A stretch of DNA of 62,134 bases, the filler included, from Malassezia furfur (Eukaryota), in NCBI GenBank assembly GCA_052055015.1. It is 4 parts of 4 records of this genome, joined end to end, with 100 filler letters (N's around TTAATTAATTAA, not from the genome) between each part and the next. Parts side by side here need not be neighbours in the genome. Positions count along the whole stretch, not along the records: positions 1 to 15,516 come from JBQJIT010000271.1; positions 15,617 to 31,094 come from JBQJIT010000272.1; positions 31,195 to 46,618 come from JBQJIT010000273.1; positions 46,719 to 62,134 come from JBQJIT010000274.1. One strand, written 5' to 3'. Made by a program: the position numbers and the translations under genes. Below the pieces are notes generated by a model. That model ran no database searches, was not told where the DNA came from, and saw only the letters and a program-made list of their open reading frames with translations. Below are positions 288 through 60,221 of this stretch, piece by piece. The stretch's first letter is position 1. Every line of letters starts with the position of its first letter.

Positions 288-1681
288 ATGTATGTCGCTA
301 AGACCGCCCTGCTAATAGCCGGCATGCTCACCATGGCTGCCTCAGCCTCGGAGCCGGTCAACAAATGGGACGTGCCTGACTTTTACTTCTCGGGCATCTC
401 GACATTTGCGCACCTCCCGCACGAAAAGTGGTACGTAGCGCGGTCCTGTGCTCATACGCATGCAGTCTGGTGAACGAGGACGTGCACTACGATGTCGCCG
501 TGCTCGGCGTGCCGATTGACACGGCTGTTTCGTACCGCCCTGGTGCGCGCTTTGGTCCGCGCGCAATCCGCCAGGGTAGCGCACGACAGACCGTGTTTCG
601 CTCGTTCAACCCGGTGCTTGGCATCAATCCATACGTGTCGCAGACCAAGTTCATGGATTGTGGTGACGTGCCAGTGACTCCATTCGATAATGCATTGGCA
701 TTTCGCCAGATTGAAGAGGCCTATGATGACATTATTGGGCGCCCTCTACCGACCGGTCCGGGCTCCATTGAGGCCCTCCCACCGAAGACGTCCAAGGGCA
801 AGCCGACCTACGTGGCCAAGGACGGTAAATCGCATCCGCGTGTCGCCCTGATGGGCGGCGACCATTCGGTTGCCCTCCCGGTGCTCCGTTCGCTCAACAA
901 GGTGTACGGCCCCGTGAGTGTGATCCACTTTGACTCGCATCTCGACACATGGGCGCCGGCCGCGTACGGTGCCGCGTCGTGGGGCTCGGATATCTCTGGC
1001 TACACGCATGGCACCATGTTTTATCATGCCGCAAATGAAGGACTGACCCGCAACTCTTCGATCCATGTCGGCCTACGTGGGCTACTCAGTGGTACCGACT
1101 ATGTCGACTACCACCGCGACAACAGCCTCGGCTTTACCTACCTGGAGACGTGGGAGATGGACAAACTCGGCACGGACGGTGTTGTAGAGGCGATCAAGGA
1201 GCGTGTTGGTGACACGCCTGTGTACCTCAGCATTGACATTGATGTGCTCGACCCTTCCATCGCCCCTGGCACCGGTACGCCAGTCAGTGGTGGACTGACA
1301 TCGCGCGAGCTACGGTCCATGGTGAGAATGCTCAAGGGGCTCAACCTTGTTGGCTGTGAGGTCGTCGAGGTGAGTCCGCCGTACGACTCGAATGGCGAGG
1401 TCACGGCACTTGCAGCTGCTGAATTACTGTACGAGATGATGTCGATCATGGCTCTTCGTCCCCTCGACAAGAAGGCGATTGACCCGTACGAGCGGCCGCC
1501 ACGCTGGGAACCGAAGAGCAAGGAGAATAAGGGCGTCAAGGGGTGTGGGTGTGACCACAGTTCGGCACCAGCTGCGTCGTCGTCAATGCCCAAGTATGTC
1601 TTTTTGTCGCTCTTGCTAGTTGTGCCCGCGGTTTTGTTTGTGTTGAAGCGTGATTCGCCTAAGCCTGAGCACCAAAAGTAG
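288..1681 (+). CDS. Agmatinase/guanidinobutyrase-like ureohydrolase (arginase family) with signal peptide and C-terminal hydrophobic anchor
   Basis: Intron 431-465 (35 nt) gives HLPHEKCLVNED. Mn-site motifs GGDHS, HFDSHLD, SIDIDVLDP and GTGTP are intact. N-terminus MYVAKTALLIAGMLTMAASAS (alternative in-frame ATG at 255). C-terminus KYVFLSLLLVVPAVLFVLKR. Confidence 0.9.
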
Positions 1682-2253
1682 GTATTGATTGTAGCGATGG
1701 AGACCAAACATGCGCACAGCACTGCTCCCATCTAGCGGGAAAATGAATATAGCAGTAGGCAAGTGGAATATTCATTATTGTTCATATTTTCATGTGTGAA
1801 GTTTTGGGCACCAGACTTGACTATCCTTGTCAAAGAACAAGGACAATTAGAGCTCACCTAGATCCTACCACTACTGCATAATCTTAGTCTCTCGAGTAAC
1901 TGTTAAGACTGTTCCAGGTATTTAAGTTTATTTTTCTTTTTGTATTTACAACCTTTACAAGAATAACATGTGTATCTTAAACCACTTGGTCAAAGTGGGT
2001 GTAAACAGAAAATGTGGTGGGAATAAGCACAGAAGTAAAATAAACTGGCTAATAAAGAGAGAGTGCAGCGAGTAGAGGTAGTAAGTTACATGAATTTGAC
2101 TATGGGATTGGAGGTGGTTCTGAACGAATACATGTTTATACCTGTTTCCTTGAAATTGCAAACGTAAAGTATTCCAATACAGCTGCTTAAACCAGAGTGC
2201 GGTGACATAACCAAAAATTGTCACTATCTGCGAAAGCGCGGAATGTCGCTATT

Positions 2254-2631
2254 TTTATCATTTATCTCTCAAAGCGGTAGAGCGGCCAGGAACTACGTAC
2301 AGATATGTCTCGGTATGTTAATCGTAACTCTGCGTAGATCGTTGTTTCTTGCCTGTAAGCTAAAAACGCCATTATGCATCCAGCAAACTTATCTGCTATG
2401 CCGCAAATGGCAAGCAACCTTCAATCTTTTGCCCCAGAAAGACATGAACGTTACGATGAGAAGTGCTTGTGCACCTCAAAAAGACAACATTTTGCTTAGT
2501 CAAGAATACCCCCGCGTTTGCCCGCTTGGGACACAAGATAAGATATGACTAGTAGCGATCATCGAGGAAGCCCGGATCATGACCGCAATCTGGGGTAAAG
2601 ATAAGAACTAGGTATGCTACATATATATAAG
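2254..2631 (+). promoter_or_regulatory. GATA-site cluster and TATA box upstream of the amine oxidase
   Basis: TTTATC at 2254 and 2261, CTTATC at 2388, GATAAG at 2537 and 2600, TATATATAAG at 2622-2631. Confidence 0.5.
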
Positions 2632-2673
2632 TGGTGAATTTTGGCTAGCTACCTCTCAGAGTGTGCGTTCAAA

Positions 2674-5107
2674 ATAAGGATCAAACCCATTTTTGGCACC
2701 TTGGCCATTTTGGCATATGTGTCAGCCAAAGTTACGCGACTGTCGCATCCACATGTGTATCAAAAAGAAGACCCTGATGGATATATCGATGAAAAAGACT
2801 TCAAAGATTCCGGATATCCTGCACCAAAAACGTGCGCTCCTAAAGAGAACATCTGGGCATCAATTACAAATGACGAAGCAGCTTCTGTGATTAAATGGCT
2901 ACATAAGCATAGTGGACTCAACCTGACGAGTGCTGAGAATGCGACCGCTTGGGATAACAAGATTAGTGTAGTGGACTTGCTTGCCCCTAATAAGGTACGT
3001 CTCTCCATTGAAAACTGCTGACCCTGTCAGACGGATGCGAATCTTTACCTCTCCGGTGACGGTCCCAAGGCCGATCGCTACGCGGTTGCCACGATTATGT
3101 TTGGTGCAACGGAAGAGCCATGGGTAGAAGATATTGGAGTCGGCCCGTTACCAATTTCAAACAAAAATCACCTTCTGGACCTGAGCTATTTGTCTACGAA
3201 GGGCACCATGAAGATTCGCAACTACAATGCCGACGAGGAATTGCAAACGAAGTTTCTTCGGAAGGTTTCAACTGGCGTTGCGGATATCACGAAAGATCTG
3301 ATTAATATGACCGTCACTACTCATGACCACTCTCAGGGTGACATCTGGGGGATTGATCCCCTTTGGCATGAGGATGGACGGGTTATCTATTGGGTTTCAT
3401 ACTGGGGAAATGTCCAAGGTTTCCAGCTTGACGGATCTACTTTACTTCCCCAGGGGCTGTTTTTCAGGTGTGACATCACTGGTCGTGATATGAGTAAATG
3501 GTCTGTTACCGGATGGTATTACAACGGACAATTCTGGAACAGTACCGAATCATTCCGTGCTGCATGGGAGCAAGGCCAGATTAAGAAGGCCGAGCTTATG
3601 AATTCGCCCTATATTGAGCCTGGGGAACATGTCTGGTATGGTACTGATCGATGGGGCAAAGCCATGGCTCAGGACGAGAAGGCACCTCCAGTTAGTGTTG
3701 CACCAGAAGGTCAGCGTTTTGCTATCGATCAAGAGAACCGCTACGTCGAATGGATGGATTTCTCTTTCTACATTACATTTACTCGCGATGCTGGTGTACG
3801 TCTGTTTGATATTAAATATCAAAACAAGACAATTCTTTACGAGCTGGGATTGCAAGAAGCCATTGCTCACTATGCCGGCTCCGATCCAGTGCAAAGTGGA
3901 ACTTCCTACCTTGACACGTACCACTCGTTTGGTGCTTATGCTTTCGAGCTGGTTGATGGCTATGACTGCCCCACCTACAGCCACTACATGAATGCTACAT
4001 TCCATGCCGACGAGCAGTCACGTACACACAGAAATGCCATTTGCCTCTTTGAAATGGACATGCAACTTCCAATTTCGCGGCATTCCTCCTCAAAGTATGT
4101 CACTGTTACCCGTAATGTGGCACTGGTCCTCCGGTCTGTTTCGACTGTTGGAAACTACGATTATACGTTCACGTACTACTTCTACCTGGATGGCTCTATC
4201 GAGGTGAAGGTCAGTGCTAGTGGCTATATTCAAAGTGCATTCTACGCTCAAAACGACGAATATGGATACCGAATTCACCGTGGCCTCTCTGGTTCGATGC
4301 ACGACCACGTGCTTACGTACAAGGCGGATCTTGATGTTCTCGGGACGAAGAACTCTTTCGCAAAGCATGGTGCATTTGCATCGAATGAATCCTATCCTTG
4401 GACACAGGGCAAACAGCGCAGCACAATGAAGATGCAGCGCTCATGGGTTGACTCTGAGGACGAAGGCAAGGTTCATATCGAGGGCAATGGTCAAGTCCAG
4501 TACCTTGTTCTTAACAAGAATGAGACAAATGACAACGGCGAGCCTCGAGGATATCGTATCATGCCAGGAGCTGGAGGATTCCATCATCTAACCATCCAGG
4601 AATCCGACAATCTGCTCAACAGTCAGCATTTTGCAACACATCACATGTATGTCACGCAACAGAAAGACACCGAGCCTCGCGTGTCTAATGCGAACAACAA
4701 TCTGGATCCAGAAAATCCGATCGTTGATTTCGGTCGTTTCCTTGACGGTGATTCCCTCGACCAAGAAGACCTTGTGTTGTGGCTGAATTTGGGGATGACG
4801 CATATCCCACACACTGGTGATCTACCCAACACGGTACAAACTACTGCACTCCAGCTTTGTTCTTCTGCCGCACAATTACCTCAAGGATGATCCATCGCGA
4901 CAAACTAAGCAAATGGTTCGCATTCAGTATGGCAAGAAAGATGATGACGCTAAACTGCACACTTTCGGTTCCTCTCCACACCCTCGTGGAATGCTCAATC
5001 TTTCTAGTGCTTACGGTGACTTGCACCAATACGCAGGGGATGTTGCAATTCGCAAATTCCCTTATGATCCGTTGCATCCGTTCAATGACACCGAGAGCAT
5101 TGTTTAA
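2674..5107 (+). pseudogene. Secreted copper/TPQ amine oxidase (AOC3 / fungal lysyl-oxidase-like type), apparently disrupted
   Basis: Intron 2995-3030 gives PNK|TDANLYL. TPQ motif VGNYDY, Cu ligands HDH and THIP are present. The signal peptide [I]RIKPIFGTLAILAYVSA starts with ATA instead of ATG (2674). A frameshift at ~4846-4849 separates TTA from HSSFVLLPHNY. Confidence 0.85.
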
Positions 5108-8617: not shown

Positions 8618-8699
8618 CGCTACAAAAGGGCCGCGAGCCCAGAAACCGATGCACCTAAACGTTAGCGACCGAACACCAAAGAAAGGTGCAGACAACCAC

Positions 8700-8780
8700 T
8701 CATATACCGTTGTAGTTTTTTGAGAAATCACCGTCACCGCCTTGTCAGGCTCAGACAGTGTGAATAAAAGTGTAATCCTT
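8700..8780 (-). ncRNA. Intronic box C/D snoRNA, dual guide (18S Cm1007-equivalent and 25S Um2729-equivalent)
   Basis: Perfect 15-bp terminal inverted repeat 8685-8699/8781-8795. Boxes: C AGGATTA, D ATGA, D' CTGA, C'-like GTGACGG. The plus strand reads the rRNA-like ATACCGTTGTAGT (8704-8716) and CAGTGTGAATA (8756-8766) right beside D and D'. Confidence 0.85.
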
Positions 8781-8892
8781 GTGGTTGTCTGCACCGGGCA
8801 CACATACCGCTGTCGTGGTCGGTGGGGAAAACTTCTGCACGGCCGGCGACACCGCGTCACGTGCCCGCCCCCCGGCTTCGCACCCACGCAGC

Positions 8893-9776
8893 ATGGCGGA
8901 TCCCAATGCGCCGGACGCGCCGGGGCACGCAGCTGTCCCTGCGATGCCGCGCCCCGAGATGATTCAGAATGCGGTGTCATTCCTCGCAGATCCCAAGGTG
9001 CAAGACTCGCCCATTTCGCAGCGGATCAGCTTCTTGGAGTCCAAAGGGCTGACACCCCAGGAGGTCGACATGGCCCTTGCACAGGCTTCGCGGCCGCAAG
9101 GCGCACCCGCTTCATCGCAGTACGCGAGCCCATACCCCATGATGCCTGCATACCCGCCCGTGCAGCCGCCGCGGCGCGACTGGCGCGACTGGTTCATCAT
9201 GGCCGTGGTGTCCGGCACGATTGGCTATGGTCTCTTTGGCCTTGCACGAGTATGTCGGCACAACTCACGCAGCGATACCTGTACCCGCACATGCAGCCGC
9301 CGAACCAGACTGTTCTTGAGGCCGAGCGTGATGAGCTCACGGCCAAGTACGACGAGGTGGCGCTCCACCTCGAAGAGCTCGACCAGACTACCGAGGCGAT
9401 CCGCCAGGGACTCGACGAGCACCAGACAGCGATCCAGCAGAGTGTCGCGGGCGTCAATGAGATGATCGAGCAGGTGCGCACGCGCGAGGAGCAGCGCGAG
9501 AAGGACTTTGAGAAGGTCAAGGCCGAGGTCGAGGAGATGCGCGAGGAGTTCACCTCGATGCTGAACCGCTCGCGCAAGTCGCAGATCTCGGCACTCACCG
9601 ACCTGCAGGGCGAGCTCAAGTCGCTGCGCTCGCTGCTCGTGTCGCGTGGTGGCCTGGCGGCGCAGCCCGCGACCTCCTCCTCCGAGAACGCCAACGAGGG
9701 CGAAAAGGCGCCGCCCGCGCCGCGCGCCGCGCCGTCCATCCCCGCATGGCAGCTCGAGGATCCCGCAGAAGAGTAG
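8893..9776 (+). CDS. PEX14: Peroxin 14
   Basis: RPEMIQNAVSFLADPKV...FLESKGLT, RDWRDWFIMAVV and a coiled coil. A 23-nt intron at 9250-9272 gives LAR|RYLYP. Confidence 0.93.
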
Positions 9777-9780
9777 GTAG

Positions 9781-11779
9781 CTATTGGAACGAGGCGTTAT
9801 CGACGCTACGCATGACGCGGCCAAATAGCCCCGAGGCAAACTCGCGCGCATTGTTCGCCACGTCGCCGAGCCCCTCGCCGAGCTCGCGCGAGGGCGCATG
9901 TCCTGCGCCAACGTTGAGCTGCATTGGCCCCAATCGCAGATGCAGGCCTGCGTCGCCCACCGAAGGCGGCGGGCGTGTGATGCTCGCGGGTAGTCGTGAC
10001 GCCGTATACTGTACCATGTCCAAAAACGACCGCGCGTTGTGGACGGTTGTGCCGCCGAGCAGGAAGCGCGTCCCCGGCCAGGTCGGTTGCGAGGGGACGC
10101 CACTACCCGAGGGTGCGCCATTGAGCAGCGCAATGCTCCGTGCCTCTTCGTAGGTTGTACCGCCAATCACAAAGAGAATCACGTCCTGCGGCCGCGTCGT
10201 CGCGCCGTTCGGGAAGAGCGTCGCGGGCGCGCCATCGGCGGCGCTCGGCTCAACGTTGGCAAAAGGATAGCTCGACGTGCGCAAGCGGCCGTGCATCAAG
10301 TGGTCGATCGTCTCGAGGAGATGCGGGGAATGCTGGGTATACACGTTTTCCACCCCCTTGAGGCCCTTGAGCGCGCTCTTCCCGCGCGAAAAGAGGTTCT
10401 CGTTTGCAAACAGGTCGTCCTGGCGCTGCTCGGCGCCGGCAAAGTTGAGCATCACATACACCAGCACGACCTGGTTCTCGGGGACGCCGACATTGATCAG
10501 CTGGCGCACCACGGCATCGATCTGGTTGCCGGACCACTTTTGGTAGCGCAGTGCGTACAGGATCGCGAGGCGCAGCTTGGCGTCGTGCCCGATTTTGCTC
10601 GAGCCCAGCAGGTTCTGTACGTTGCGCAGATCAGACGAGTGGCTCTCGTTGCTTGCCAGGCTCTGCTCAAGCTCACTGACCTGCAGCAAGTCGCGCTCCT
10701 CCACGAGCCGACTAAGCTCACCCAAAAGCGCAACATGCTTCGACACGTTGCCCCGCAGTCGCTGGAATTCGGGGTATTCTTCGACGAACCGCTTCATGTC
10801 CTGGATCGTCTCGATCGACGACGCAGACGACGACCGCGACTGGAATTGCGTGACGTACTGCTTGATCGACGCACCCAGGTCGCCAAAGTTGTCGTAGAGG
10901 TTCGCAGCAAAGAAGGGGTCATTGTCCACCGACAGCACAATCTCCTCAGCCTTGCCCTCACCGTGGAGGAGCTGCGTGCGTCCATTGTGGATACCAATCA
11001 GCTCGTGCACCATCGCTTGGTACGTCCACTGCGTCAGCAGCGGCGTTACAGGGTCGTTGCGCCGGTCGAGGATGAGGAGCAGCGGCGGCACATCGGTGCG
11101 CCGGAAGTCGAAGAGGGATGCTTGCGTGTTGGTCATCTGGTACGAGACGTCCTCAGCGAGCTTCTTGGCGAGCGCACTCATGCGCTCATACCGGATGACC
11201 GGCTTCTTCTTGAGGCTCAGCAGGAGCGACACGAGCCCCGCCGAGTGCCGCGCAAACGACTCGCTGTCCCACTGCGCAAGGGCATTGCCCCACACCGCGC
11301 TCGGCGGCACCGACTCATTCAGCGAAAAGTGCGATGCAGTGACCGGAACATAGTCCGTGAAGAACTCTTGCACGTTCTGCACGAGCTGATGCTGGTCGGC
11401 TTCAGCGAGCTGCTCAATGCTGTTCTTCGGGACGACGTTGCTAAAGTCTGGGGTCAGCTAGCCGACGTACACAGCGCATAGGAGCCGTAGCGAGGGTGCT
11501 GCAGCTCATCACACAGGGCTTGAATCGAAGTGGCACATGGTCGCACGTACACGATGCACTGCAAGTGCGGCATGCGCTCGCGCGTGCCGTTCTCGAGCTT
11601 GTCGGTGAGGTAGACTTCATTTTCCAGCAGGGCCGACTGGGTGAACGACGCAGAGATGGTGGGCGTCTGAATGAGCAGGTAAAACGCACCGTATACTGGT
11701 CAAGGAGCAGCATTTTCATGCCGTGCACCTCCTTGACCATGCGCTCCATATACGCGGCAACCGCCTTGCCGACGTCCAT
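9781..11779 (-). CDS. VPS45: Sec1/Munc18-family protein Vps45
   Basis: MKMLLLD..T, LLLILDRRNDPVTPLLTQWTYQAM, ENVYTQH, IGGTTYEE. 23-nt introns at 11667-11689 and 11448-11470. Confidence 0.95.
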
Positions 11780-13599: not shown

Positions 13600-14619
13600 A
13601 TGACCACCGAGGTGAAGCGTAAGTGTTAATGGACGCACTGACGTTGCAGCACTCCCGACCTACGTGCAGGTCGGCGCGGGCGCTTTCGCCGGGATTGTTG
13701 AGCTTGCATGCTTGTATCCGCTGGGTATGTGCCGTGCTTATCGCAGATGTCGTCAAGACGCGATTGCAGCTGCAGCTTAAGTCGAGTGCTCCGCAGTATC
13801 GGGGCACCTTGGACACGCTGAAGCAGATCATGCAGCAGGAGAGGTATGTGCACCGTATGCTCATGCAGTTTTTCGCGGCTGTACCGCGGGATTGGGCCGC
13901 TGTTTGTGCTGGAGGCGCCGAAGCGCGCGATGAAGTTTGGGTAAGTGTCGTGTGCGCTCATGTGCAGCGCGAACGACTTCTGGGGCAAGACGTTCCGCAA
14001 AGCCTTTAACCAAAAAGAAAAGACTCAGGGTCTGACGCTGCTCACGGGATGTGCGGCGGGTGCGACCGAGTCGCTAATTGTGGTGCCTTTCGAGCTGGTC
14101 AAGATCCGCCTGCAGGACCGCAGCCAGGCGCACCTGTACAACGGCCCGATGGATGTGGTGCGGACGATTGTGAAGCAGTGCGGCTGGACTGGGCTGTACA
14201 CGGGCCTGTGGAGCACCATGGTGCGGCACATTCTGTGGAACGGCGGCTACTTTGCGACGATCTTCAAGATGCAGAGCGTGCTGCCCAAGCCGCACACCGC
14301 GGGCGAGCGCATGCGCAACAACCTTATCTCGGGCACGGTCGGCGGGTTTGTGGGCACGCTGTTCAACACGCCTGCGGACGTGGTCAAGACGCGCATCCAG
14401 AACGTGGACCGCGTCAAGGGTGTCGCGCCCAAGTACCGCGGCGCGTTTACGGGCATTCTGCTGATCTACCGCGAAGAGGGCTTCCGTGCGCTGTACAAGG
14501 GCTTTGCGCCCAAGGTGCTGCGTCTCGCGCCCGGCGGCGGCATTTTGCTGCTGGTGGTCGAGGCGGTGAGCGAGCAGGCGCGCCGCTGGATGGGCCCGCC
14601 GTACGTGCCGGCGGCGTGA
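13600..14619 (+). CDS. ODC1: Mitochondrial 2-oxodicarboxylate carrier (ODC1/2-like)
   Basis: Three Px[DE]xxKxR repeats and EAPKRAMKFGANDFWGK after splicing introns 13619-13649, 13725-13746, 13844-13868 and 13941-13967. Confidence 0.88.
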
Positions 14620-16914: not shown

Positions 16915-18060
16915 CTATGCACACTGCGGCGGCGCGCGGCCGTCGCTGTCGACTTGCGCAAAGGACGCCACGAGGCGCGAGATGCCAATGTACCCCTTGC
17001 ACAGCGCCCACACGTCCGTGCCTTCCTCGAGCGGCTCGCCGTCGCCCGGGCGCATCGCACGCGCCAGGTTCGGCCGGAAATCGAGGTAGGAGCCGTGCTC
17101 GGCGTGCTGCACGGGCAGCGGCGACACGCCCAGGGGGCGCACCCGTGTGCTGTCGTCGTCGTGCGACTTGGTCGGCGGCACATACTGCTGCATATGCCGG
17201 CTCATCCAGATCCGCGTCCAGACCACCTTGGGCTCCCGGAGACATTCGCACAGCGGTACGTTCATCGCATATACCTGCACAGCTGCATCGTCATCCCAGT
17301 GCTCCCACAGCTGCGTTAAAATGGACGCGCTATGCCGCGAAGCCAGCGTGCGCATCTCGGTCTCCTCGTCAGGCGTGAGCGGCGACGCATCCGTCCGCCC
17401 ATCGAGACACGGAGGGCATTCACGGAAGTGGCCGTAGCTGATCGCCACGCCCCGTACGTCGCCCAGCGCGCCGGCCAACGCGCCGCCCAGCGTGCCGGAT
17501 GACACCGAGAACGCTGTGCCTGTGTTCCGTCCGTAGTTGGGGCCCGACACCACGAGCGAGATGGGCGGCGCATCGGGCGTGCCAAACAGGGTATTTCCAG
17601 TAAACAAGCCGATGTTGGTGCAAGTCGACGGCGTCTGTGCATGTCAGCAGGGCCACGTACGCCATCCACAAGCACCCACTCAGCGATTTCGCCGCGATGG
17701 TGGTCGATCGTGCGACGCGTGTTGCTCCAGCATCGCTGTGTGTCGGGGTGCGAGCCATCAAAGTTGTCGCGGAGGGGGTAATAGCTGCGTGGTGAGCCGG
17801 TGCACATACTACCAGTAGCGCAACTGTGCATCATGCACCGTGTAGTTGGTGCCGCTCCACGACTTTTCTGCAGGTCAGTGCCACACAGCGCCACGTACGC
17901 GAGCTGGGCAGGACGACGCGCACGTCCCATCCGAGCGCGACGAGCTCTTGGAAGAGCTGCAGGACATAGGGTGACGACTACAGCGTGTCAGCAGCGCGCT
18001 ACCTACCGCCGATGGTGGTCCGTCGTCGTTTACGATTAGCACGCGTGGTTTCGCGGTCAT
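16915..18060 (-). CDS. SurE-like nucleotidase/phosphatase
   Basis: VLIVNDDG, QKSW, DG|TPSTC, VVSGPNYGRN and SSGTLGGA after removing introns 17978-18006, 17868-17898, 17785-17809 and 17635-17660. Confidence 0.88.
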
Positions 18061-44124: not shown

Positions 44125-45700
44125 ATGTCGTCGGTCGTTGCCGACGTGGAGAATGCCTCTATACCAAGCGTCGAGAAGGTCGATGACCTAAAGAAGGACG
44201 CCGTGTCTCCGCCAAACGACCCACAGCGGTACCGCGGCATTGTGGGGCGGTACCGCCGCTTCCGCGACCGGACGGCGTGGCGGCCTTTTTCCGCCATCGA
44301 ATGGACGAGCATTGAGCCGATACCCGAAGAAGACCGTGTCCAGCGCAACTACTGGTCTGCGGCGCTGATCTGGTTCAGCGTCAACATGAATGGTGCGTGC
44401 CCTGACCGCTCATGCAGTGCTCTCCTTCTCCACCGGCACGCTGGCGCCGTCGATGGGGATGGGTCTGCGGTCGTCGATGTACACGATTGTCGGATTCATT
44501 GTGCCCTGCAGCCTCTTCCCTGCCTACTTTATTACGTTCGGCCCCAAGCTGGGCATGCGCCAGATGGTCCAGTGCCGGTACTCGTTTGGGTACTTTGGCG
44601 CGAGTCTGGTGTCGCTGCTGAACGCCGTGACGATGTGTGGCTACGTGATCCTGAATGCGATTCTCGGCGGCGAGACACTGCAGGCAGTGTCGCCGAACCA
44701 GTCCATGTCGGCGACGGTCGGTATCGTGATCATTGTGGTGATTGCGCTGTGTATCTCCTTCTGCGGCATCCGCATGCTGCACTGGATTGAGCGCTTCTTT
44801 TGGCTGCCCGTGATGATCAGTTTCATCATCATGGTGGGCGAGACCAAGACGGGGCCGATGGGCCTGCACACGGAGCCGAACGAGCCGTCGCCGCCGTCGC
44901 GCACCATCCTGAGCATGGGGTGTGTGCTGGCCGGTTTCCAGATGTCGTACGCGGCGCTGGCCTCTGACGTGAGTTTGTACATCCAGCCGCGGATCCCGTC
45001 GTGGAAACTGTTTGTCACGACGGCGTGTGCCTTTGCGGTCGGCTCTGCGACGATCCTCATGCTGGGTGCGGCGTTTGCGGCGTCGGCGCAGACGATCCCT
45101 GCGTGGAACGATGCGCTGACCCAAAACCCGTCGCCGGGCCCGCTGATCAATCTTGTGCTCTCGACCAAGCTCGGCAACTTTGGCAAGTTTCTCACGGTGC
45201 TGATTGCGCTGTCGGCGATGGGCAACATCATGGCGACGCTGTACTCGCTGGGTCTGACGTGCCAGACGCTGCTTCCTGCGCTTGTCGTGCTGCCGCGCTT
45301 CGTCATCCCTGTGCTGGCCGTGGCGATCATTCTGCCGCTGTCGATCGTGGGCAAGGACCACTTCTACGATACCCTGACGAATTTCGTGAGCATGATCGCG
45401 TACTGGGCGGCGCTGTACATCGGCGTGGTGCTGGCGGACCACATTGTGATCCGGCGCACGCGCTTTGCATCGTACGACCCTGCCATCTACAACCAGTGGG
45501 GCAAGCTGCCGCCCGGCGTCGCGGCGGTCGGCGCGGCGGTGCTGTCGCTCGGCCTGGTGATCCCGCTCATGGACCAGGAGTGGTACACGGGCCCCCTTGC
45601 GCGGCATGTGGGCGATCTCGGATTCGAAGTCGGCCTCGTGCTCTCCTTTGTGCTCTACATAGTGCTGCGTCCGCTCGAGAAGCGCATCGCGGGGCGGTAG
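44125..45700 (+). CDS. NCS1 purine-cytosine/pyridoxine permease (Fcy2/Tpn1-like)
   Basis: WFSVNMN|VLSFSTGTL, FGPKLGMRQMVQCRYSFG, MDQEWYTGP, GDLGFE. 25-nt intron at 44393-44417. Confidence 0.88.
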
Positions 45701-45795: not shown

Positions 45796-46618
45796 ATGGC
45801 CGAATTCCCGAGCGCGAGCGGGGCCGACGACGTCGCGAGCCTCTCGCTCGACGAAAAGCTCGTATCGAAGGTGTGTGACTCTCCTGACGCAGCTCTGGAA
45901 GGCCCGTCTCGCCGGCTATGAGGAGCTGGCGCGCCTCTTTGCGCGCACGGCGTCCGAGGACGACCCCGTGTTCGCCGAGTACGCTCGGCGTACGGATACG
46001 CTGCGCGCCATGGCGCTCGACGCGAATGCAGCCGCCCAGGAGAAGGGCCTTGAGGCGCTTGTTGCGTTCGTGCAGAACGGGGGCCGCGTCGCCGGGCGGA
46101 CCCGCGAAGCGGTGCTCCCCGCGATCGCCGAAAAGGGCCTCACGTCGATGCGCACCGGCACACGCAAGCACGCCCACGACCTCGTGCTGCTCTATGCGGC
46201 GCACGAGGACGTCGCAGGGTGCGAAGGGCTGCTGTCCGATCTATGTGCGCTGCTCTCGTCCAAGCAGCCCAAAGTCGTCGCGGCCAACGTCGCGGCGCTC
46301 GCGGCGCTTGTCAACGCGTTCGGCACGCAGCAGCTCCAGGTGAAGGGCGTCGTGAAACGCGTGCCAGATATCTTTGCACACGCAGACAAGAACGTGCGTG
46401 CCGAGGGCACGCAGCTCGCCGTCGCGCTGCATCGGTACCTCGGCGCGGCGCTCCGACCGACGCTGGGCCAGCTTAAAGAGATCCAGGTGAAGGAGCTCGA
46501 GGCGAAGTTTGCCGAGGCAGACGCACAGGGCGCACCGAGCCCGACGCACTATCTCTTGTCGCAGCAGCCCGCGGAGCCGGCCGCGGCTGAGCCCGGCGCG
46601 GCCTGCGGCGACGCCGAT
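45796..46618 (+). CDS. STU2: XMAP215/Stu2/Alp14 microtubule polymerase, TOG1 region; 3' truncated
   Basis: LDEKLVSK|LWKARLAGYEEL, DANAAAQEKG, KQPKVVA, FAHADKNVRAEG. 22-nt intron at 45871-45892. Confidence 0.9.
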
Positions 46619-46718
46619 NNNNNNNNNNNNNNNNNNNNNNNNNNNNNNNNNNNNNNNNNNNNTTAATTAATTAANNNNNNNNNNNNNNNNNNNNNNNNNN
46701 NNNNNNNNNNNNNNNNNN
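46619..46718. other. Artificial contig linker
   Basis: N44-TTAATTAATTAA-N44. Confidence 0.99.
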
Positions 46719-46877: not shown

Positions 46878-47279
46878 ATGGCGCGCGGCGCTCGGCACGC
46901 GGCCGCAGTGCGCGCGGCGATTGCAGCGCTCCAGGCGGACGCGCCGGCCCACCACATGCCGGCGCTCACGCAGCTCGTGTTCCACGTCCCGCACAAACTC
47001 GACAACCCGCGCCTCTGGTACGCCGCCTCCTTTGCGCTGACCCAGGGACCTCATGCGCCGCCAATTGCCCAAGGTGGTGTACGCCAACCCGCAGGTGGAC
47101 GTGCAGGTCGCCCCGACGCAGCCCAGCGAGGCGACAAGCGTGCGCGTGCACTTTGGTACGCCCTCCGCACTCACGCAGCCAACATGCCCGAGCGCACCAT
47201 CGTCCTGGGCGACAAGCCCGCCTCGGAAATCCTGCGCGAGCTGCGCACCATGGGCCGCTTTGCGCACGAACAGCGGTAG
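46878..47279 (+). CDS. Probable mitochondrial ribosomal protein mL61/Mrp49 (L51/S25/CI-B8 domain)
   Basis: W|DLMRRQLPKVVYANPQV...VHF|AN...SEILREL after introns 47018-47045 and 47156-47178. Confidence 0.65.
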   Translation: MARGARHAAAVRAAIAALQADAPAHHMPALTQLVFHVPHKLDNPRLWYAASFALTQGPHAPPIAQGGVRQPAGGRAGRPDAAQRGDKRARALWYALRTHAANMPERTIVLGDKPASEILRELRTMGRFAHEQR

Positions 47280-49810: not shown

Positions 49811-51198
49811 CTACGTATAGCCTCCACGGTAGTGAGGGCGAAACGGACTGGGCGCGTCGGCGTACCGTGCGCCGCGCCCCCGCCGAGCGCGCCGCGCAGG
49901 AGGCGACACGGAGCGGGGGCGCGGGCCACGCACAAACGGCCGCCCACGCGTCGGCGTCGACGACCGGCTCCGGTCCTTGTCTCGCCGTGCGTCGCGGCGG
50001 AACGCCTCGGGCGTCCGACCACGCTCTTGCGTAGGCGAATCATAGTCCAGCGGCTGCCGTAGCGCCTGCCGCCGCGCAAACCAGTCGTGATCGTCCTCGT
50101 CCCGCTCCATGTCCAGCAGCGAGGGACGCGGCGGCAGAGGACCTTCGCTCCGCCGCCGCCGCAGCGGCGCACGCGGCGACGCCGCTCGCGCCTCGCCGCC
50201 ACGGCGGATGTGTGCGTGTGCACGCGGCTGGGCAAACGGACCGCTCGACGCAATCGCCTCGCTGAACGGCGACGGCTCGCCGGTCGGCCGCGTGGGGTTC
50301 GCGCGCCGCAAAAAGCAGTCGTCGCCCCAGTGGTGGCCGGACGCCGCACAGTTGTAGCACCACGCCAGCGCGGGGTCCCAGTCCTTCGGCGGCGCGTCGT
50401 GCACCGCTTCCTCGTCGTCGCTCGAGTCGCTCGGGCCACTCGAGTCGCTCGGCTGCACGAGCGCCGCGGCCCACCCCGCGCGGTGCTTCTCGCGGCGCTG
50501 GGTGCGCTCCGCTTTGCGCTCGGCGCGCCGCTCGAGATGGCGCGCGCGCTTCGCACGGCGCTCGGCGTATTCCTCGGGCGTGTTGTAGGTATAGATACGC
50601 CACAGCGTCGGGCAGCTCGTCTCGGGATGCGACGTGCTTCCGCACCGCTCGCACATACTGCGTCGGCCGCCGGTGCGGGGCAACGGACAGTCCTGGGTCA
50701 GTGGGGTCAACGTACGCGGCTCCGGTGGCCGATGCCGCCACAGCGGAAGCAGCTCGTGCCGAGCGGGCAGTCACGCGTCGCGTGCTCATCGATTGCGCCA
50801 CACGCCAGGCACTGCTGGTAGGGGCACCGCTTCTTATCGTGGCCGGCCTCGCCACACACGGGGCAGATGCCCTTTTGCCGGCGCGCGTCCGCCGCCTCGG
50901 CTTCGTAGTACCGCGCGCCGGGCGCCGCATCAATCTGCTCGTAGTCGCCATCGGCCGTCGGCGCGGGCGGCGGCGAGGCCGGCGCGTCGGCGACGATCGC
51001 GACGTGGCCCGGCAGCTGAAGGCCGCCGTCCGACGTGGGCGCCTCGGCGGGCGCCTCGCCCGGCGGCGAGTCCGCACGCGCTTCGGGCACGTCGGCGCTT
51101 CCCGTGTCTACGACAAAGCTCGAGTCTGCCGCTTCGCCGTCGTCCGCAGCCGACGTCGCGTGCGCGGCACGCGACCCGCGTGCCTTCTTCCGGCTCAT
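49811..51198 (-). CDS. Zinc-knuckle protein, Air1/Air2 (TRAMP)-like
   Basis: Five CCHC-type knuckles, CPTLWRIY and WCYNCAASGHHWGDDC. 23-nt intron at 50693-50715. Confidence 0.85.
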
Positions 51199-51238: not shown

Positions 51239-52307
51239 CTATGAGCGGCTCGGCAGGCCGTCGTGCAGGTCGTAGCGGATGCGGAAGATGTCGCGCGCAG
51301 TCGTGAGCACACGCAAGTCGAGCGTGTGGTACAGGAGCGCCTCGTTCTCGTGCTCGACTCGTGCAGTGCACCCGAGCAGGGGTGCGCTGCAGCTCGACAG
51401 GCCCAGGCCGCGCGGCGCCTCGGCGCCGTCCTTCGGTGGGCCGGCCGCATTGCACATGCACACAAAGCTCTCGTTCTCCATCGCGCGGCACACAGTGAGC
51501 GCATCTGATGAGTGTGTAGGGGTACATACTGAGGCATGCCTCCTCGCAATCCTTGTTCCACGCAAGCGCGGCAGGGCCGCTATCGTCCGCGTACCAGCAC
51601 GTAGGCGCAAAAATGACGTCCGGCCCGATCCACTGCCCGGGGCGGTCGAGGTGCGCATCGCTGTGGCCCTCCTCCTTCGGCCCGATCATCCGCCGGAACG
51701 CCTCGGGGAACATCAGGTCCCAGCACATGACCATCGCCGAGCGCACCACAAGGCCGCGCCGCGTCTCAAAGACAAACGCGGCCGCTTGGTCTTCGAGCGG
51801 GTGCGTTTGGTCGGTCGCGCCCGCGAGGATCGCGCGCTCGGCGTGCCACAAGTTCCGCTTGGTATAGATGCCGCACACGGTCCCTTTGCGGTCGACAAAG
51901 TAGGTCGTGTTGTACAGGCCGTGCTGCGTCGTATCGCCCTGTGCAAACGCACGCAGCTGGACGACGGAGCCGGTGACGATCGCGATATCGTGCGCGGCGG
52001 CAATGTCCGCCACGTCTTTGACCCACGGCGCAATGTCGTGGCCCTGCAGTGCGGGGGTGCGCTTCACGCTGTGCCACGCGCCGTGCGTCGCGCCGGTCAG
52101 AAAGTACTCGGGGAAGACGATAACGTCGGCGCCGTTCGCGGCCGCCTGCTGCGTGAGCCGCGCGAGTTTCGGCAGCGCCTCGTCGATCACCCCATGCTCG
52201 GAGCTGTTGGGGTACACCTGCGCAAGCACGACGTGCAGCCGCAGCCGCTCTTCCTCGGCGTTCGCGCCGTGCACAAACGCGCCCTGGACGGGGAGGTCGG
52301 ACGCCAT
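51239..52307 (-). CDS. Carbon-nitrogen hydrolase (nitrilase superfamily)
   Basis: Catalytic triad FPEY, YTKRNL, MCWDL. RAMENE after a 25-nt intron (51505-51529). Confidence 0.88.
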
Positions 52308-54481: not shown

Positions 54482-54930
54482 CGCACTCTGCCATGCCCAG
54501 CGACAGCGCAAGACTCGCATGCTGCGTCACGGCAGCGTCCACAAAGTGCTGGTCGTCAGGGCCGCCCTTGCCCCCCGGCGTCGGCACGGGGGCAGCCGCG
54601 GTGCCGGCCAGTGCGCCGGACTTGACGTCCGACGCCGTCGCCGTGATTGCGTCCGAGCTGCTGGACGAGTCTGTGTGAGTGGTGCGACGTACTGCCCGAG
54701 GCACTCGCCGAGCCGGCGGCGGTGCTGGATGCCAAGCTGGCGTCGGTGCTGAGCGCTGAGCTGGCGGCGGTGCTGGGCGCCGAGCTGAGCGCGGCCGACG
54801 ACGCGCTGTTGGATGCCGTGCTCGCCAGCGAGCTCGCGGCTGTACTCGGTGCGGACGTCTGCGCGATACTGCTGCTTTGCGCGGCCACACTCGCGGCGAG
54901 GAGCACCGCTCCCCAGTAGGCCCACCGCAT
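54456..54930 (-). CDS. Small secreted Ser/Ala/Thr-rich, probably GPI-anchored protein
   Basis: Signal MRWAYWGAVLLAASVAA, SAPSTAASS repeats, 22-nt intron (54671-54692), hydrophobic C-terminus. Confidence 0.75.
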
Positions 54931-55610: not shown

Positions 55611-56861
55611 ATGGACACGCACGGCGAGGCGCAGGGCGTGTACGGCGCGGGCGTCTATCACGACCACGAATATGGGCAGAAGGAGGCCTATGCAAACCCC
55701 TACGCGCCGCACGAAGACGGCATGGACGCCTGGGCGATCCAGAGCGACGACGAAAGCGAGCCAGAGTCCGAGGAGGAAGGTGCGTCGGGCGGCCTCACCC
55801 AGACTTTGACGTATACCGCGACTTTAACAACCTGAGCACACCAGCCAAAGAGGAGCCGGTGTACGAACATACCGCACCGCAGCGCGACCAGAGCACGCTG
55901 CCCTCGCGGCGCGCCCAAACCGCGACCCAACCCCCGCCGCTGCGCCGGTCGGGTCCGCAGCTCGTGTCGTTCCACGACATGGGCGGTCTATACCCAGCAA
56001 CAATGAGCAGCCAGCACGTCCATGACATGCAGCGCGGTATGTACGACACGACGCGCGGGCACTCGTTTGCGAGCGACGACGCGAAACCGTTTGCGTACGA
56101 CCTCGGCGAGTCGACGCTGGAGCTGGCCCCACTTGGCGACGAGTTTACCGCAGAAGAGCGCGCGCGCATGTCGCGCAAGGCGCAGCGGCGGCACTGGCGC
56201 TACAGCAAGCTGGGCGCCGTCGACTCGTGGATGCGCGGCTACAACCCGCTGTGTGGCTGGTTTGGGCCGCACGTTGCGGTGTTTACCGTGTTCTTTTTCC
56301 TCGTGTTTCTCGGTGTGCTGCTCTACTTTGTGGTGCCGCGCGTGCCGGACGTCACGCTAAAGACCAAAGACCCACTCGCGGCCGCGGGGGATACGTCTGC
56401 GATGGACATCACCGCGCAGCCGACGGGCTTTGCGATGAACGGCACCTTGACCGTGCGGCTGGACAATGGCGACGGGTGGATTCCGTCGCGCATCAACACG
56501 CTCAGCGCCGAGGTGCACTACAAGCCGGCCAAGACCAAGGTGGGCTCTGGCTCGCTCCGGGGCAAGTCGGTGCCGGGCCGCAAGACGACCGAGCTGAGCA
56601 TCCCTATCGAATTTGACTACCACAGCCTTAACTCGACCGGCGACGACACACAGCTGGCTTTCCAGAATGCATGTGCACATCCTTGTACGTATGTCCTACT
56701 GACCCAGACCGCGGCGTGCAGCGGACGTGTAGGTGGCCATACTTACCGCAGCGCTCGACCTCACGATCGACGTTCTGATCGACATCCAGGCCGTCATTGG
56801 CACGCACAAGTCGACATTCGATCTGACAGGTTATGCATGTCCCTGGGTGCTTCCCAATTAG
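55611..56861 (+). CDS. Type II membrane protein with LEA2/WHy-like luminal domain
   Basis: DFDVYRDFNN, TM ending YFVVPRVP, beta-rich C-terminal domain ending CPWVLPN. Three 23-nt introns: 55780-55802, 56685-56707, 56729-56751. Confidence 0.7.
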
Positions 56862-56999: not shown

Positions 57000-59228
57000 A
57001 TGGCCGAGTCCATGGAGAACATGGGCGCAGCGGCCGGCCAGTTCTTCGCGACGGCCGGCCATAAGATGGGCCACGCACTGCATGGGCTCGAGGAGAGCGC
57101 CACAGGGGTGCATGAACACCCCGGTCTGAAGCTCCGCATGATGACCTGGAATATGCACGGCAAGATCCCCAAGGGCGACCTGGAGATCCTGTTTGGGCAC
57201 GTTGACCCGTACAACCCTGCGGACGCGCCGCGGCTTGGCCCGGACGAAATCCCGCCACTGCCAATGAACGACGCCTACCCGTACCACCTGGTGGTCATCT
57301 CGTGCCAGGAATGCCCGTGGGGTGAGGGCGGGCAGCTCACCACCACGCTGCACACCGCCGGCGAGATCGGCAGCGCGGCGTTTGGGCGTACCAAGCCCGC
57401 GCGCGACTTGTACAGCGGCGAGCACCGGCATATGGATGCGCCGGGCAAGGGCACCGGCGCCGATTCCGAGCTCGACTTGCAGCGCATCAGCTCGGTGAGC
57501 TCCACGGCTGGCAGTCTACCCTTGGCCGGCTCGCCGCCAGTGCGTAGCGCACGGCCGTCGCTGTCCATCCAGACGGATGGCGACGCTGAGCGGCCCATGG
57601 CCAGCCCGGTGCGGCGCGACGCCGCCAATGGGCCTGCACGCACCAAGGTCCAGGGGTGGAGCAAAGTGTGCGAAGACTGGTTCTGCTACGCGACCAGTCC
57701 CAACAGCCCCGACGCCTCGCCGTACATCTCGCCCACCGACCGCCCTGACTCGGACACCGAGTCGCTCTTGTTGGAGCAGTATCCCTCGCGCACGCACAGC
57801 ATCCACCGCCTCGCGCACCAGCTGAGCCGCGCGTCGCTGCGCGGCGAAAGCCTGTCTGACCGCTCGTTCGTATCGCCGCAGGACATGCGGCAGCCGCCCA
57901 AGCGGCTCGGGCCGTACGAGCTGGTGATCAAAAAGCGCATGATGGGCTGCTACTCGGCCGTGTACGTCTGGCGCGGCTGCCACGAGCTGGTGCGCGGCGC
58001 GAGTGCCAACTATGTCAAGAGCGGCCTGCTTGCGGGGCGCATGGGCAACAAGGGCGGCGTCGGTATCAGCATCCTCTTTGGCAAGACGCGGCTGCTCTTT
58101 GTCAATGCGCACCTCGCCGGTACGTTGCCCAACCTAACGCAGCGCACGCCAACAAGATTGCCGCGCGGTTCGATAACATCCAGCGCATCTCGACCGAGCT
58201 GCGTGTCGAGACGTTTTTGCCGCCCGACGACCCGCGGAACAAGCTCGAGGACATCACCGCCAAGTTTGACCACGTGTTCTGGTGCGGCGACCTGAACTGT
58301 ACGTCTCCCCACTCACCCAGTCCGCGTCGAGATCAACCGCAAGGACGCCGACGTTCTGATCCAGCAAAAGGCGTACCACCGCGCGTTCCAGTTTGACCAG
58401 CTGCAGAATGCCATGCGTGAGGGCAAGGTGTTCCAGCACTTCGAGGAGGCACCCATCGCGTTCCCGCCGACGTACAAGCTTGACATCCTCAAGGCCGCGG
58501 ACGCGCGCGATGTGTACCCTTCGGAAGAGGCGTCGTTTGTCACGACCGACGACTCGTTTGGGCCACAGCGCACCAAGCCGTCCGTATGGCGCCGCGTGTG
58601 GCGCCGGCGACACCACCACAGCACCGATGCGCCTGAGATGAACACGGGTACATTGGCGCTACGCAGCCCGTCGCCGGACACTGCGTCGCTGTCCAACTTT
58701 TCCGAGAGCTCGTCGATCATGGAGGACGCCGCGGACGAATTGAACGACGTACTCCCGACGAAGGACGTCACGACGGGCAACACGTCTTCGCCCATCCGGC
58801 TGAACCTTGTCCATGCGGTCAAGGAAGAGGTGCAGGTGCGCAAGGAGGAAAACGCCACGATCTACGCCCTGGGCAATGCGACGTACGACTCGAGCGCCAA
58901 GCAGCGCTTGCCGTCGTGGTGCGACCGCGTGTTGTGGCGCACCAACGACCCGGCACCACAACACCCCACCAAACACCGCTCAGGGCTGTTTGGCCGCCGG
59001 CGCGACCCGAGCTCGCACCGGGAGGAGGAGGCCGTGCGCTCCTTCATTCAGGCGCCGCTGCACTGGCTGCACGGCAAGGGCCAAGACACGGCAGCGGCCG
59101 AGCATGGCGCAGGCAAGGGAAGTGTCACGGTGCTTGCGTACCGCTCGATCGACGACCTCGACAGCGAGGCGCTCGGCGCGACGTCCGACCACCGCCCGGT
59201 GCTCTTTAGCGCGTTCGTCCGTACGTAG
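57000..59228 (+). CDS. Inositol polyphosphate 5-phosphatase family protein
   Basis: TWNM, GNKGGVG, NAHLA|AH, FWCGDLN|FR, FPPTYK, PSWCDRVLW, SDHRPV. Introns at 58120-58142 and 58299-58320. Confidence 0.92.
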
Positions 59229-59289
59229 CTCCACCTCCACGTGATATACCCAACCGCCGGCGGTCTTCCCCCGCTCCTCTTTCTCGGCG

Positions 59290-59854
59290 ATGGCCACGAG
59301 CGACGCGGCGCCGACCTCCGAAGAGCTGTCCGTGTTCCACGCGCCGCGGCCGTTCAAGGCGGCGGCGTTTGTGGAGCGCGCGAGTGGCTCGACGAAGCGC
59401 AACAAAACGCTCAAGCAGATCCTCAATATGGAGCGCGACGCGCAGCTCCAGCGGCTCGGCGTGGACAAGAAGCGCAAAGAGGCCAAGCGGCGGCGGACCA
59501 CGGAAGAGGCCGCTGCTGAGCCCGAGGCAGCCGCGACACCAGCGTCGCCGATCGACGACGGCGCAGAGCGGCGCATGGTGCCGACGTGTACGTGGAAGCC
59601 GCTGACCCAGACACCAGCGTCGAGGCGCCGCCGAGTCTGCTGCCGGCCAAGCGGTATTGCGACATTACGGGCCTGCAGGTACGTGGTACGCTCACACAGG
59701 CGCCGTACACGGACCCCAAGACGCGGCTGCGGTACCACAGTGCGGAGATCTACGACATCGTCAAGGGATTTGTGCGTGTGTGCACTGACAACAGGCGCCT
59801 GGCGTGGACAATGCATACCTTGCGCTGCGTGGGAGCGCGTCACAGCTGATGTAG
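59290..59854 (+). CDS. IES6: INO80 complex subunit Ies6 (YL1_C)
   Basis: KTLKQIL, PT|YTSVEAPPSLLPAKRYCDITGLQ|APYTDPKTRLRYH...YLALRG. Introns at 59588-59610, 59679-59699 and 59772-59794. Confidence 0.92.
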
Positions 59855-59865
59855 TGGTGGTATGT

Positions 59866-60221
59866 CTAGATGAGGCGCGCGCTGTCCGCCGTGCGCCACG
59901 CACGCAGCTCGTCGGTGACAGGCCGGTGCGTGACGGCGGCTGGGTCGCTGGCCTTTTGGCTACGTATTTCGCGTAGCTCTTCCAGTGAGCGTGGGTGCCG
60001 CTGCGGTGAGTGGGCGCACGTACGAAGCCGGTCTCGGGGGGCACGAAGCGGTCGCGGAACTGGGTGAGCGGCGCCGACCTACCGGCAGGACGTATTTGTC
60101 GTACCACGCCGGGTCGCCGAAGTAGATCATAAACGCGAGTGGGAACGCGAGGTAGCTACGTGAGTCGCGCATTGCCGACGTACAAGCCGAAGCGGAACAC
60201 CTCGAGGTTGTGCCCGCCCAT
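59866..60221 (-). CDS. PET100: Cytochrome c oxidase assembly factor Pet100 (not in ORF track)
   Basis: MGGHNLEVFRFGFYLAFPLAFMIYFGDPAWY. Introns at 60156-60183, 60060-60082 and 60001-60023. Confidence 0.85.

Follow-up and report, generated by a model that had tools for sequence, protein, structure and literature searches.

Probable miniature U2-type introns with a 23-nucleotide mode in genes of Malassezia furfur

A 62,134-base stretch of Malassezia furfur DNA (the window) carries 46 short GT-AG introns of 21-36 nucleotides (nt) in 24 genes, spanning positions 431-60183, together with two further introns of 107 nt and 153 nt, both in 5′ leaders, for a total of 48 introns per 62 kb. We consider it highly probable, at roughly 0.9, that these are U2-dependent GT-AG nuclear pre-mRNA introns that have shrunk to little beyond three recognition elements. 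We observe the elements and their spacing, the repair of the reading frame, and a match to orthologues and intron-less relatives; from these we infer binding by small nuclear ribonucleoproteins (snRNPs), the formation of lariats, and what sets the lower length limit. The window is not contiguous: three spacers of the form N44-TTAATTAATTAA-N44, at 15517-15616, 31095-31194, and 46619-46718, divide it into four pieces, each ~15.5 kb, and all counts are pooled over the four joined pieces.

Gene models were built from a codon log-odds map (ten long open frames), motif scans, and three-frame reading, independently of an intron list given in an earlier note on this DNA. The short introns have lengths of 21 nt (three introns), 22 nt (five), 23 nt (17), 24 nt (one), 25 nt (seven), 26 nt (one), 27 nt (two), 28 nt (two), 29 nt (one), 31 nt (two), 32 nt (one), 34 nt (one), 35 nt (one), and 36 nt (two), with a mode of 23 nt, a median of 23 nt, a mean of 25.3 nt, and a minimum of 21 nt; 41/46 are shorter than 30 nt. 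The 23-nt class is concentrated in piece 4, where it makes up 10 of the 16 introns, versus 7 of the 30 in pieces 1-3. The earlier note's length histogram for the 46 short introns is thereby reproduced exactly, and the 107-nt and 153-nt introns that it listed are present, by their signals, at 19024-19130 (−) and 8655-8807 (−). Its claim that the introns restore frame or conserved motifs likewise holds, in that all 46 give open models and 15 have been checked at the residue level.

The signals are sharp and closely spaced. A GT at the 5′ end and an AG at the 3′ end are found in 46/46 short introns and in both long ones. The donor fits GTRYGT in 38/46 and GTRNGT in 44/46, the remaining two being GTACGC; the hexamers are GTACGT (21), GTATGT (8), GTGCGT (8), GTAGGT (4), GTAAGT (2), GTACGC (2), and GTGTGT (1). 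A branch motif of the form YTNAY is present 4-11 nt from the 3′ end in 44/46, and the other two introns have, by eye, ATAAC and CCAAC at the modal position; over the 46 introns the motifs are CTGAC (19), CTCAC (12), CTCAT (6), CTAAC (4), other YTNAY (3), and relaxed forms (2). In particular, the branch A lies at +16 to +18 from the 5′ end in 26/44 and at +16 to +20 in 34/44, and the distance from the branch A to the 3′ end is 5 nt in 25/44 and 5-7 nt in 36/44. The acceptor is CAG in 43/46. The spacer between donor and branch site is 6-10 nt long and 50% pyrimidine, the longest T run is at most 2 in 42/46, and the introns have a guanine-plus-cytosine (GC) content of 58%. A polypyrimidine tract of the metazoan type is absent, with 0-3 nt between branch motif and YAG in most introns; many fungal introns are without such a tract, which is thus not a strict criterion. 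The consensus, the branch position, and the missing polypyrimidine tract described earlier are therefore accurate for the 46 introns. The U12-type signature, with donor /RTATCCTT and branch TCCTTAAC, is not seen, GTATCC or ATATCC donors occurring in 0/46. The GT-AG ends, GTRNGT donors, YTNAY branch motifs, and restored frames are those of U2-type introns, in keeping with the spliceosomal reading proposed before.

Such a combination of signals is far more frequent than chance. The strict pattern GTRYGT-N(4-40)-CTSAY-N(0-6)-YAG, searched on both strands, has 32 matches, versus 3.48 ± 1.84 per shuffle (maximum 12) in 200 dinucleotide-preserving shuffles of the four pieces; for matches 21-25 nt long, 23 were observed versus 0.37 per shuffle. 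The 32 matches comprise 29 catalogue introns, all on the sense strand, two nested shorter readings of such introns, and one unused match; 0/32 are antisense to gene models. The unused match, at 59866-59903 (−), is 38 nt long and ends exactly on the PET100 stop codon, which could be chance or an alternative 3′ end. Intron length is a multiple of three (3n) in 8/46 (binomial p = 0.027 versus one third), and five of these eight contain an in-frame stop; all three 3n introns without a stop are 21 nt long, and adjacent profile positions confirm two of them. Because the other 38/46 have non-3n lengths, read-through would break the frame. The shortfall of 3n lengths and the presence of stops are consistent, in a small sample, with selection against retention that goes unnoticed. 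A deficit of 3n introns without stops has been reported in Paramecium.

The introns, the two leader introns, and a probable 4-nt exon are listed below by position, strand, and gene, with the evidence for each; L001, L002, and L005 are three syntenic loci of relatives, obtained from a metagenome-contig scan with Malassezia VPS45 proteins.

431..465 (+), arginase-family gene intron, 35 nt: frame and signals; connects the start exon to the Arginase-domain exon, the Arginase Pfam match beginning 9 residues past the junction
2995..3030 (+), copper amine oxidase intron, 36 nt: frame, signals, and an in-frame stop within
8655..8807 (−), 5′-leader intron of an AC19/RPB11-like RNA polymerase subunit gene, 153 nt: signals GTATGT ... 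CTAAC ... TAG
9250..9272 (+), PEX14 intron, 23 nt: residue level; DNA of L001, L002, and L005 intron-less and gap-free
11448..11470 (−), VPS45 intron 2, 23 nt: residue level; homologues and L001 read-through
11667..11689 (−), VPS45 intron 1, 23 nt: residue level; homologues and L001 read-through
13619..13649 (+), mitochondrial carrier intron 1, 31 nt: frame and signals; follows a 6-codon start exon
13725..13746 (+), mitochondrial carrier intron 2, 22 nt: residue level; Mito_carr adjacency and L001 read-through
13844..13868 (+), mitochondrial carrier intron 3, 25 nt: residue level; Mito_carr adjacency and L001 and L005 read-through
13941..13967 (+), mitochondrial carrier intron 4, 27 nt: residue level; L001 read-through; in-frame stop
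17635..17660 (−), SurE-like phosphatase intron 4, 26 nt: frame and signals; downstream exon matches from SurE position 69
17785..17809 (−), SurE-like intron 3, 25 nt: frame and signals; in-frame stop
17868..17898 (−), SurE-like intron 2, 31 nt: frame and signals
17978..18006 (−), SurE-like intron 1, 29 nt: frame and signals; connects the start exon
19024..19130 (−), ribosomal protein S8 5′-leader intron, 107 nt: GTGCGT ... CTAAC ... CAG; ends 8 nt before the start codon
22380..22403 (+), GYP5-like RabGAP intron, 24 nt: upstream of the 4-nt exon; modal geometry
22404..22407 (+), probable 4-nt exon TCTT, GYP5-like gene: needed for frame and for a conserved L-F
22408..22430 (+), GYP5-like intron, 23 nt: modal geometry; branch ATAAC by eye, its A at +18 and 5 nt before the 3′ end
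22612..22632 (+), GYP5-like candidate intron, 21 nt: perfect signals; in a variable linker; 3n, no stop
23241..23265 (+), oxysterol-binding protein intron 1, 25 nt: frame and signals
23392..23416 (+), oxysterol-binding protein intron 2, 25 nt: in-frame stop; upstream exon matches PH positions 20-57
23453..23475 (+), oxysterol-binding protein intron 3, 23 nt: frame and signals
30906..30932 (−), DOP1-like intron, 27 nt: frame and signals; in-frame stop
31570..31591 (−), mitochondrial-type ABC transporter intron, 22 nt: upstream exon runs to ABC_tran position 130/137; the next exon opens with a Walker-B-like LLDEATSALD
37852..37874 (−), pentafunctional AROM intron, 23 nt: residue level; DHQ_synthase 52 to 53
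40654..40676 (−), SNRNP27 intron 2, 23 nt: upstream exon runs to profile position 44/56; followed by an 11-codon last exon, too short for the scan
40754..40774 (−), SNRNP27 intron 1, 21 nt: residue level by profile; 3n, no stop
41544..41577 (+), NDUFB4-like intron 1, 34 nt: frame and signals
41622..41646 (+), NDUFB4-like intron 2, 25 nt: frame and signals; in-frame stop
41758..41789 (+), NDUFB4-like intron 3, 32 nt: frame and signals; upstream exon has a weak NDUF_B4 match, 71-103 (E 0.07)
42728..42763 (+), homocitrate synthase intron, 36 nt: residue level; identical GenBank protein and homologues
44393..44417 (+), purine-cytosine permease family intron, 25 nt: frame and signals
45871..45892 (+), TOG-domain gene intron, 22 nt: frame and signals; gene cut by the end of piece 3
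47018..47045 (+), intron 1 of a small L51/S25/CI-B8-domain gene, 28 nt: downstream exon matches profile 3-33; frame and signals
47156..47178 (+), intron 2 of the L51/S25/CI-B8-domain gene, 23 nt: frame and signals
50693..50715 (−), CCHC zinc-knuckle gene intron, 23 nt: upstream exon runs to zf-CCHC position 14/18, the last Cys coming from the next exon
51505..51529 (−), nitrilase/CN-hydrolase intron, 25 nt: exons match CN_hydrolase in order, 16-162 then 193-255
54671..54692 (−), Ser/Ala-rich secreted-type gene intron, 22 nt: frame and signals only; coding score on the opposite strand as well
55780..55802 (+), weak-LEA_2 gene intron 1, 23 nt: frame and signals
56685..56707 (+), weak-LEA_2 gene intron 2, 23 nt: frame and signals; followed by a 21-nt exon
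56729..56751 (+), weak-LEA_2 gene intron 3, 23 nt: frame and signals
58120..58142 (+), inositol polyphosphate 5-phosphatase intron 1, 23 nt: residue level; Exo_endo_phos2
58299..58320 (+), inositol polyphosphate 5-phosphatase intron 2, 22 nt: residue level; Exo_endo_phos2
59588..59610 (+), YL1_C-domain gene intron 1, 23 nt: frame and signals
59679..59699 (+), YL1_C-domain gene intron 2, 21 nt: residue level by profile; 3n, no stop
59772..59794 (+), YL1_C-domain gene intron 3, 23 nt: frame and signals
60001..60023 (−), PET100 intron 3, 23 nt: frame and signals
60060..60082 (−), PET100 intron 2, 23 nt: frame and signals
60156..60183 (−), PET100 intron 1, 28 nt: Pet100 profile position; in-frame stop

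Residue-level checks of the junctions were made for 15 of the 46 short introns, and all 15 passed, by three kinds of evidence in overlapping sets: orthologues (the two VPS45 introns and that of homocitrate synthase), adjacent Pfam positions (eight introns), and the DNA of intron-less relatives (six introns). The spliced model of homocitrate synthase is identical to a GenBank M. furfur protein at 471/471 residues, and 10/10 homologues are gap-free at its junction. The junction of VPS45 intron 1 is gap-free in 15/17 aligned homologues and that of intron 2 in 13/17, distant fungi included; the exceptions are truncated or mis-spliced records, plus one relative's record at the second site. For Pfam adjacency, each exon was scanned separately and the profile positions were compared across the junction. 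Specifically, at 37852-37874 the last residue of the upstream exon corresponds to position 52 of the DHQ_synthase profile and the first residue of the downstream exon to position 53, and the SNRNP27 profile covers positions 3-19 upstream and 20-44 downstream of 40754-40774. The Exo_endo_phos2 profile passes from 137 to 140, the latter on residue 2, at 58120-58142, with the split codon as 138, and from 178 to 180 at 58299-58320, with the split codon as 179. The YL1_C profile covers positions 1-7 (+1) before and 9-29 after 59679-59699. Across 13725-13746 and 13844-13868 the Mito_carr profile covers 4-26, 28-58, and 61-82, the gaps being filled by a split codon (position 27) at the former and by a split codon plus one residue at the latter. 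In PET100, the Pet100 profile begins at position 14 on exon 2, and exon 1 supplies 12 codons plus a split codon that corresponds to position 13.

Six junctions are read through, gap-free, in the DNA of intron-less relatives. In L001, VPS45 and the mitochondrial carrier (from residue 11 onward) are uninterrupted; PEX14 is uninterrupted in all three loci. In L002 (65% GC), VPS45 has introns at the same sites as in the window, of 23 nt (intron 1) and 24 nt (intron 2), and the carrier intron at the 13725..13746 site is 23 nt versus 22 nt in the window; the L002 introns retain donor, branch, and acceptor but differ in their spacers. In L005 (53% GC), VPS45 intron 1 is longer, at ~74-76 nt, as is intron 2, at ~62-74 nt. 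Intron positions are thus shared and signals conserved while the interiors drift, and L001 has lost the VPS45 introns. Since these introns are absent in L001, 23-24 nt long in L002, and 62-76 nt long in L005, miniaturisation differs between lineages. VPS45 of L002 also holds an extra 23-nt intron (5155-5177 of the locus) that is lacking in M. furfur.

Several observations weigh against the reading of all candidates as real U2-type introns. The remaining 31/46 short introns are identified by frame and signals, with some ordered domain matches, and both long introns by leader position and signals alone; that at 8655..8807 lies upstream of the start codon. One 21-nt candidate, at 22612-22632, has an equivalent of 21-24 nt that public annotations treat as coding in four relatives, and two of the introns in the same GYP5-like gene, together with the 4-nt exon between them, have a rival in a single 47-nt intron, discussed below. 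Finally, a motif-free test, in which GT..AG segments of 15-70 nt were scored for frame repair, gave 138 hits, where the 255 alternative dinucleotide pairs averaged 134. Open shadow frames, abundant in GC-rich DNA, keep this test from separating GT-AG, so that the full motif carries the statistical case.

These points bear on an explanation in which a sizeable share of the candidates would be chance matches or retained in-frame stretches that are not removed, and in which selection by hand would partly account for the 23-nt mode. It draws on the 31/46 introns outside the residue-level checks, on the three 21-nt candidates that are 3n without a stop, on the coding annotation of the 22612-22632 equivalent, and on the uninformative boundary-only test. 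However, it has to contend with 23 matches at 21-25 nt versus ~0.4 in shuffles, with 38/46 lengths that are not 3n, with profile confirmation of two of the three 21-nt introns, and with 15 passes at 15 checkable junctions, and we judge it improbable. Still more remote is an origin of the frame breaks in sequencing or assembly errors, in pseudogene lesions, or in excision of the IRE1/tRNA-ligase type (tRNA, transfer RNA): we raised it on account of the small size of the segments and found no point in its support, the same donor, branch, and acceptor signals occur at every break, 0/46 donors are of the U12 type, and introns lie at the same sites in relatives' independent assemblies.

The GYP5-like gene contains the probable micro-exon. 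Reading a 24-nt intron, the 4-nt exon TCTT, and a 23-nt intron yields L-F, as in 10/18 homologues, with V-F in one more, and the exons flanking the micro-exon leave exactly two positions of the TBC profiles uncovered. A single 47-nt intron with a poor donor, GTGACC, would give R-T instead of L-F; since two residues remain in this reading too, the profile test does not separate the two. Residue identity and signal quality favour the micro-exon, which we regard as likely. Public annotations of five Malassezia species treat this site in four different ways, and a Violaceomyces record has a similar two-residue oddity at the same spot of GYP5.

Three further segments were tried and rejected. A 153-nt in-frame candidate at 888-1040 in the arginase gene would remove the region of the metal-binding motif, where the Arginase profile is unbroken. 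A 21-nt in-frame candidate at 11029-11049 in VPS45 exon 3 is unused, its read-through scoring as coding. At the start of the copper amine oxidase gene nothing fitted but a GT..AG segment of 15 nt that has no branch site and was not accepted, and three-frame reading of the region found no start codon for this gene.

Pairing of the donor with U1 and U6, and of the branch site with U2, is textbook knowledge, and a mechanism for the miniature introns can be proposed on this basis. The 6-nt 5′ splice site GTRNGT would be recognised first by U1 and later by U6; next would come ~6-10 nt of spacer, free in composition; the branch site CTSAY would be read by U2, with the A bulged out; and 4-5 nt after the branch, ending in YAG, would complete the intron, the first AG past the branch being used and no space being left for a polypyrimidine tract. 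Recognition would probably span each intron as a unit (intron definition). The clustering of lengths at 23 nt, with none below 21 nt, may reflect deletion pressure in a compact 7-9 Mb genome acting against the minimum size that the spliceosome accepts, the proposed minimum being a branch A at least 16 nt from the 5′ end.

Whether the machinery itself has changed is a separate matter. A branch A at +16-18 with 4-5 nt to the 3′ end misfits the side-by-side placement of U1 and U2/SF3b in textbook A complexes, as well as recognition of a tract by U2AF, and would thus point to modified assembly; we tentatively suggest, while holding it to be doubtful, that the spliceosome routinely works at a hard floor of 21-23 nt, even defining a 4-nt exon, by a modified early assembly route. 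A variant, possible but rather unlikely, is that the same real introns are removed by a specially adapted spliceosome, early-assembly factors having been changed or lost in Malassezia. The tight geometry (branch A at +16 to +18 in 26/44 and 5 nt from the end in 25/44), the missing pyrimidine tract (50% pyrimidine, T runs of at most 2 in 42/46), and the 21-nt minimum would fit such adaptation, and the orthologous introns of 62-76 nt in a lower-GC relative point to a lineage-specific miniaturisation that could need co-evolution. The window encodes SNRNP27 (tri-snRNP 27K, Pfam PF08648; 40620-41416 (−)), whose gene itself contains a 21-nt and a 23-nt intron and which is not known from budding yeast; its presence argues against a stripped-down spliceosome and is silent on adaptation. 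An Rfam scan of the window found no small nuclear RNA gene, its matches being two tRNA genes. According to a 2026 paper (PMC13644364), ciliates and myxozoans with introns of 15-27 nt retain canonical factors, so that unmodified machinery may tolerate such sizes.

Short introns as such have been published for Malassezia, as the earlier note had remarked, and the class itself is therefore not new. The sources report 5350 introns with a mean of 30 bp in M. sympodialis, 99% of them with support from RNA sequencing (PMC5389616), a median of 30 bp and a mean of 37 bp in M. restricta (PMC9241646), an M. restricta annotation with the minimum intron length set to 20 and 15 (PMC6473144), and, in a review, 'very short introns' (PMC7426719). 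The text available from this Malassezia literature gives no 21-23-nt mode, lower limit, or branch geometry, although figure S8 of PMC5389616 may show the mode. Other Malassezia are alike in their compact 7-9 Mb genomes and in GT-AG introns far shorter than those of other fungi; against the averages published for them, the M. furfur window, with mode and median at 23 nt, is shorter than the mean or median of 30.

Comparable sizes are known from distant lineages. Introns average 25 nt in Paramecium tetraurelia (PMC8997360) and measure 15-16 nt in Stentor (cited in PMC13644364), and myxobolid introns have a median of 22-27 bp, microsporidia and dicyemids being listed as further exceptions (PMC13644364). 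The ciliates resemble M. furfur in that lengths are narrowly distributed just above a floor and each intron is recognised as a unit. The introns of ciliates combine AT-richness with weak branch motifs; unlike them, those of M. furfur have 58% GC, a strong CTSAY branch, and a strong GTRYGT donor, in a transformable yeast. Myxozoans, dicyemids, and microsporidia share an independent shrinkage to <30 nt in reduced or fast-evolving genomes. The nucleomorph of Bigelowiella natans, an endosymbiont-derived relic nucleus, has very AT-rich introns of 18-21 nt, and is alike in near-uniform minimal length and in a highly compacted genome. The ultra-short introns of animals are reported to have reduced splice-site motifs (PMC13644364), whereas the M. 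furfur motifs are sharp. Malassezia is missing from the list of <30-bp intron exceptions in the available text of that paper, which names ciliates, microsporidia, and dicyemids, and is not mentioned in the available part of a preprint on spliceosome complexity.

The remaining features of the window concern its composition and gene content. GC content, ~50% where piece 1 begins, climbs to 65-72% over pieces 3 and 4 and is highest in piece 4; bases 1-8000, at 49-52% GC, lie far below the rest and hold the arginase-family and copper amine oxidase genes, with weak codon-bias scores. Piece ends cut a WD40-type gene at 15619, a TOG-domain gene at 46618, and an open frame leaving the window at 62134. 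Two tandem, near-identical tRNA genes, at 25386-25480 and 25551-25643 (+), are 93-95 nt long with an insertion after the anticodon loop and score 43.4 bits each with Rfam; ARAGORN calls both as Ser(CGA), and the loop by eye could be ACG with a ~20-nt intron of the tRNA type. The N-terminal half of the GYP5-like protein contains a D/E-rich low-complexity run of ~70 residues (20900-21250, +).

Mini-introns are present in public records, yet several M. furfur ones are wrong there. The earlier note had expected gene finders to mis-annotate many such genes, and public M. furfur proteins are indeed wrong in two of the three genes checked (VPS45 and GYP5). Specifically, the NCBI/UniRef record of the VPS45 encoded by the window has 466 residues only and begins at model residue 212, and in two other M. 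furfur VPS45 records (626 and 611 residues) longer deletions replace one or both 23-nt introns, while the VPS45 records of M. brasiliensis, M. japonica, M. obtusa, and M. yamatoensis have the same junctions as our model. For GYP5 of M. furfur, a 528-residue record stops inside the first mini-intron and a 698-residue record deletes conserved residues; the records of M. obtusa and M. psittaci have the R-T reading and retain the 21-24-nt in-frame segment. The 36-nt intron of homocitrate synthase is annotated correctly in the M. furfur GenBank record. PET100 and the NDUFB4-like gene, which had been described as invisible as open frames, are fragmented into exons of 12-44 and 14-37 codons, respectively.

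Real genes come out truncated or distorted when annotation tools have no model for 21-25-nt introns or for exons only a few bases long, and the same limit is probably behind surveys that class M. sympodialis as intron-poor (PMC8476143), when the window alone carries 48 introns over its 62 kb. M. furfur, a culturable basidiomycete yeast that can be transformed via Agrobacterium and whose introns are most often 23 nt long with strong, legible signals, could serve to measure the minimal intron and its distances from 5′ splice site to branch and from branch to AG. With its under-described intron geometry, its hard floor, and a probable 4-nt exon, it is a useful, testable model rather than a discovery.

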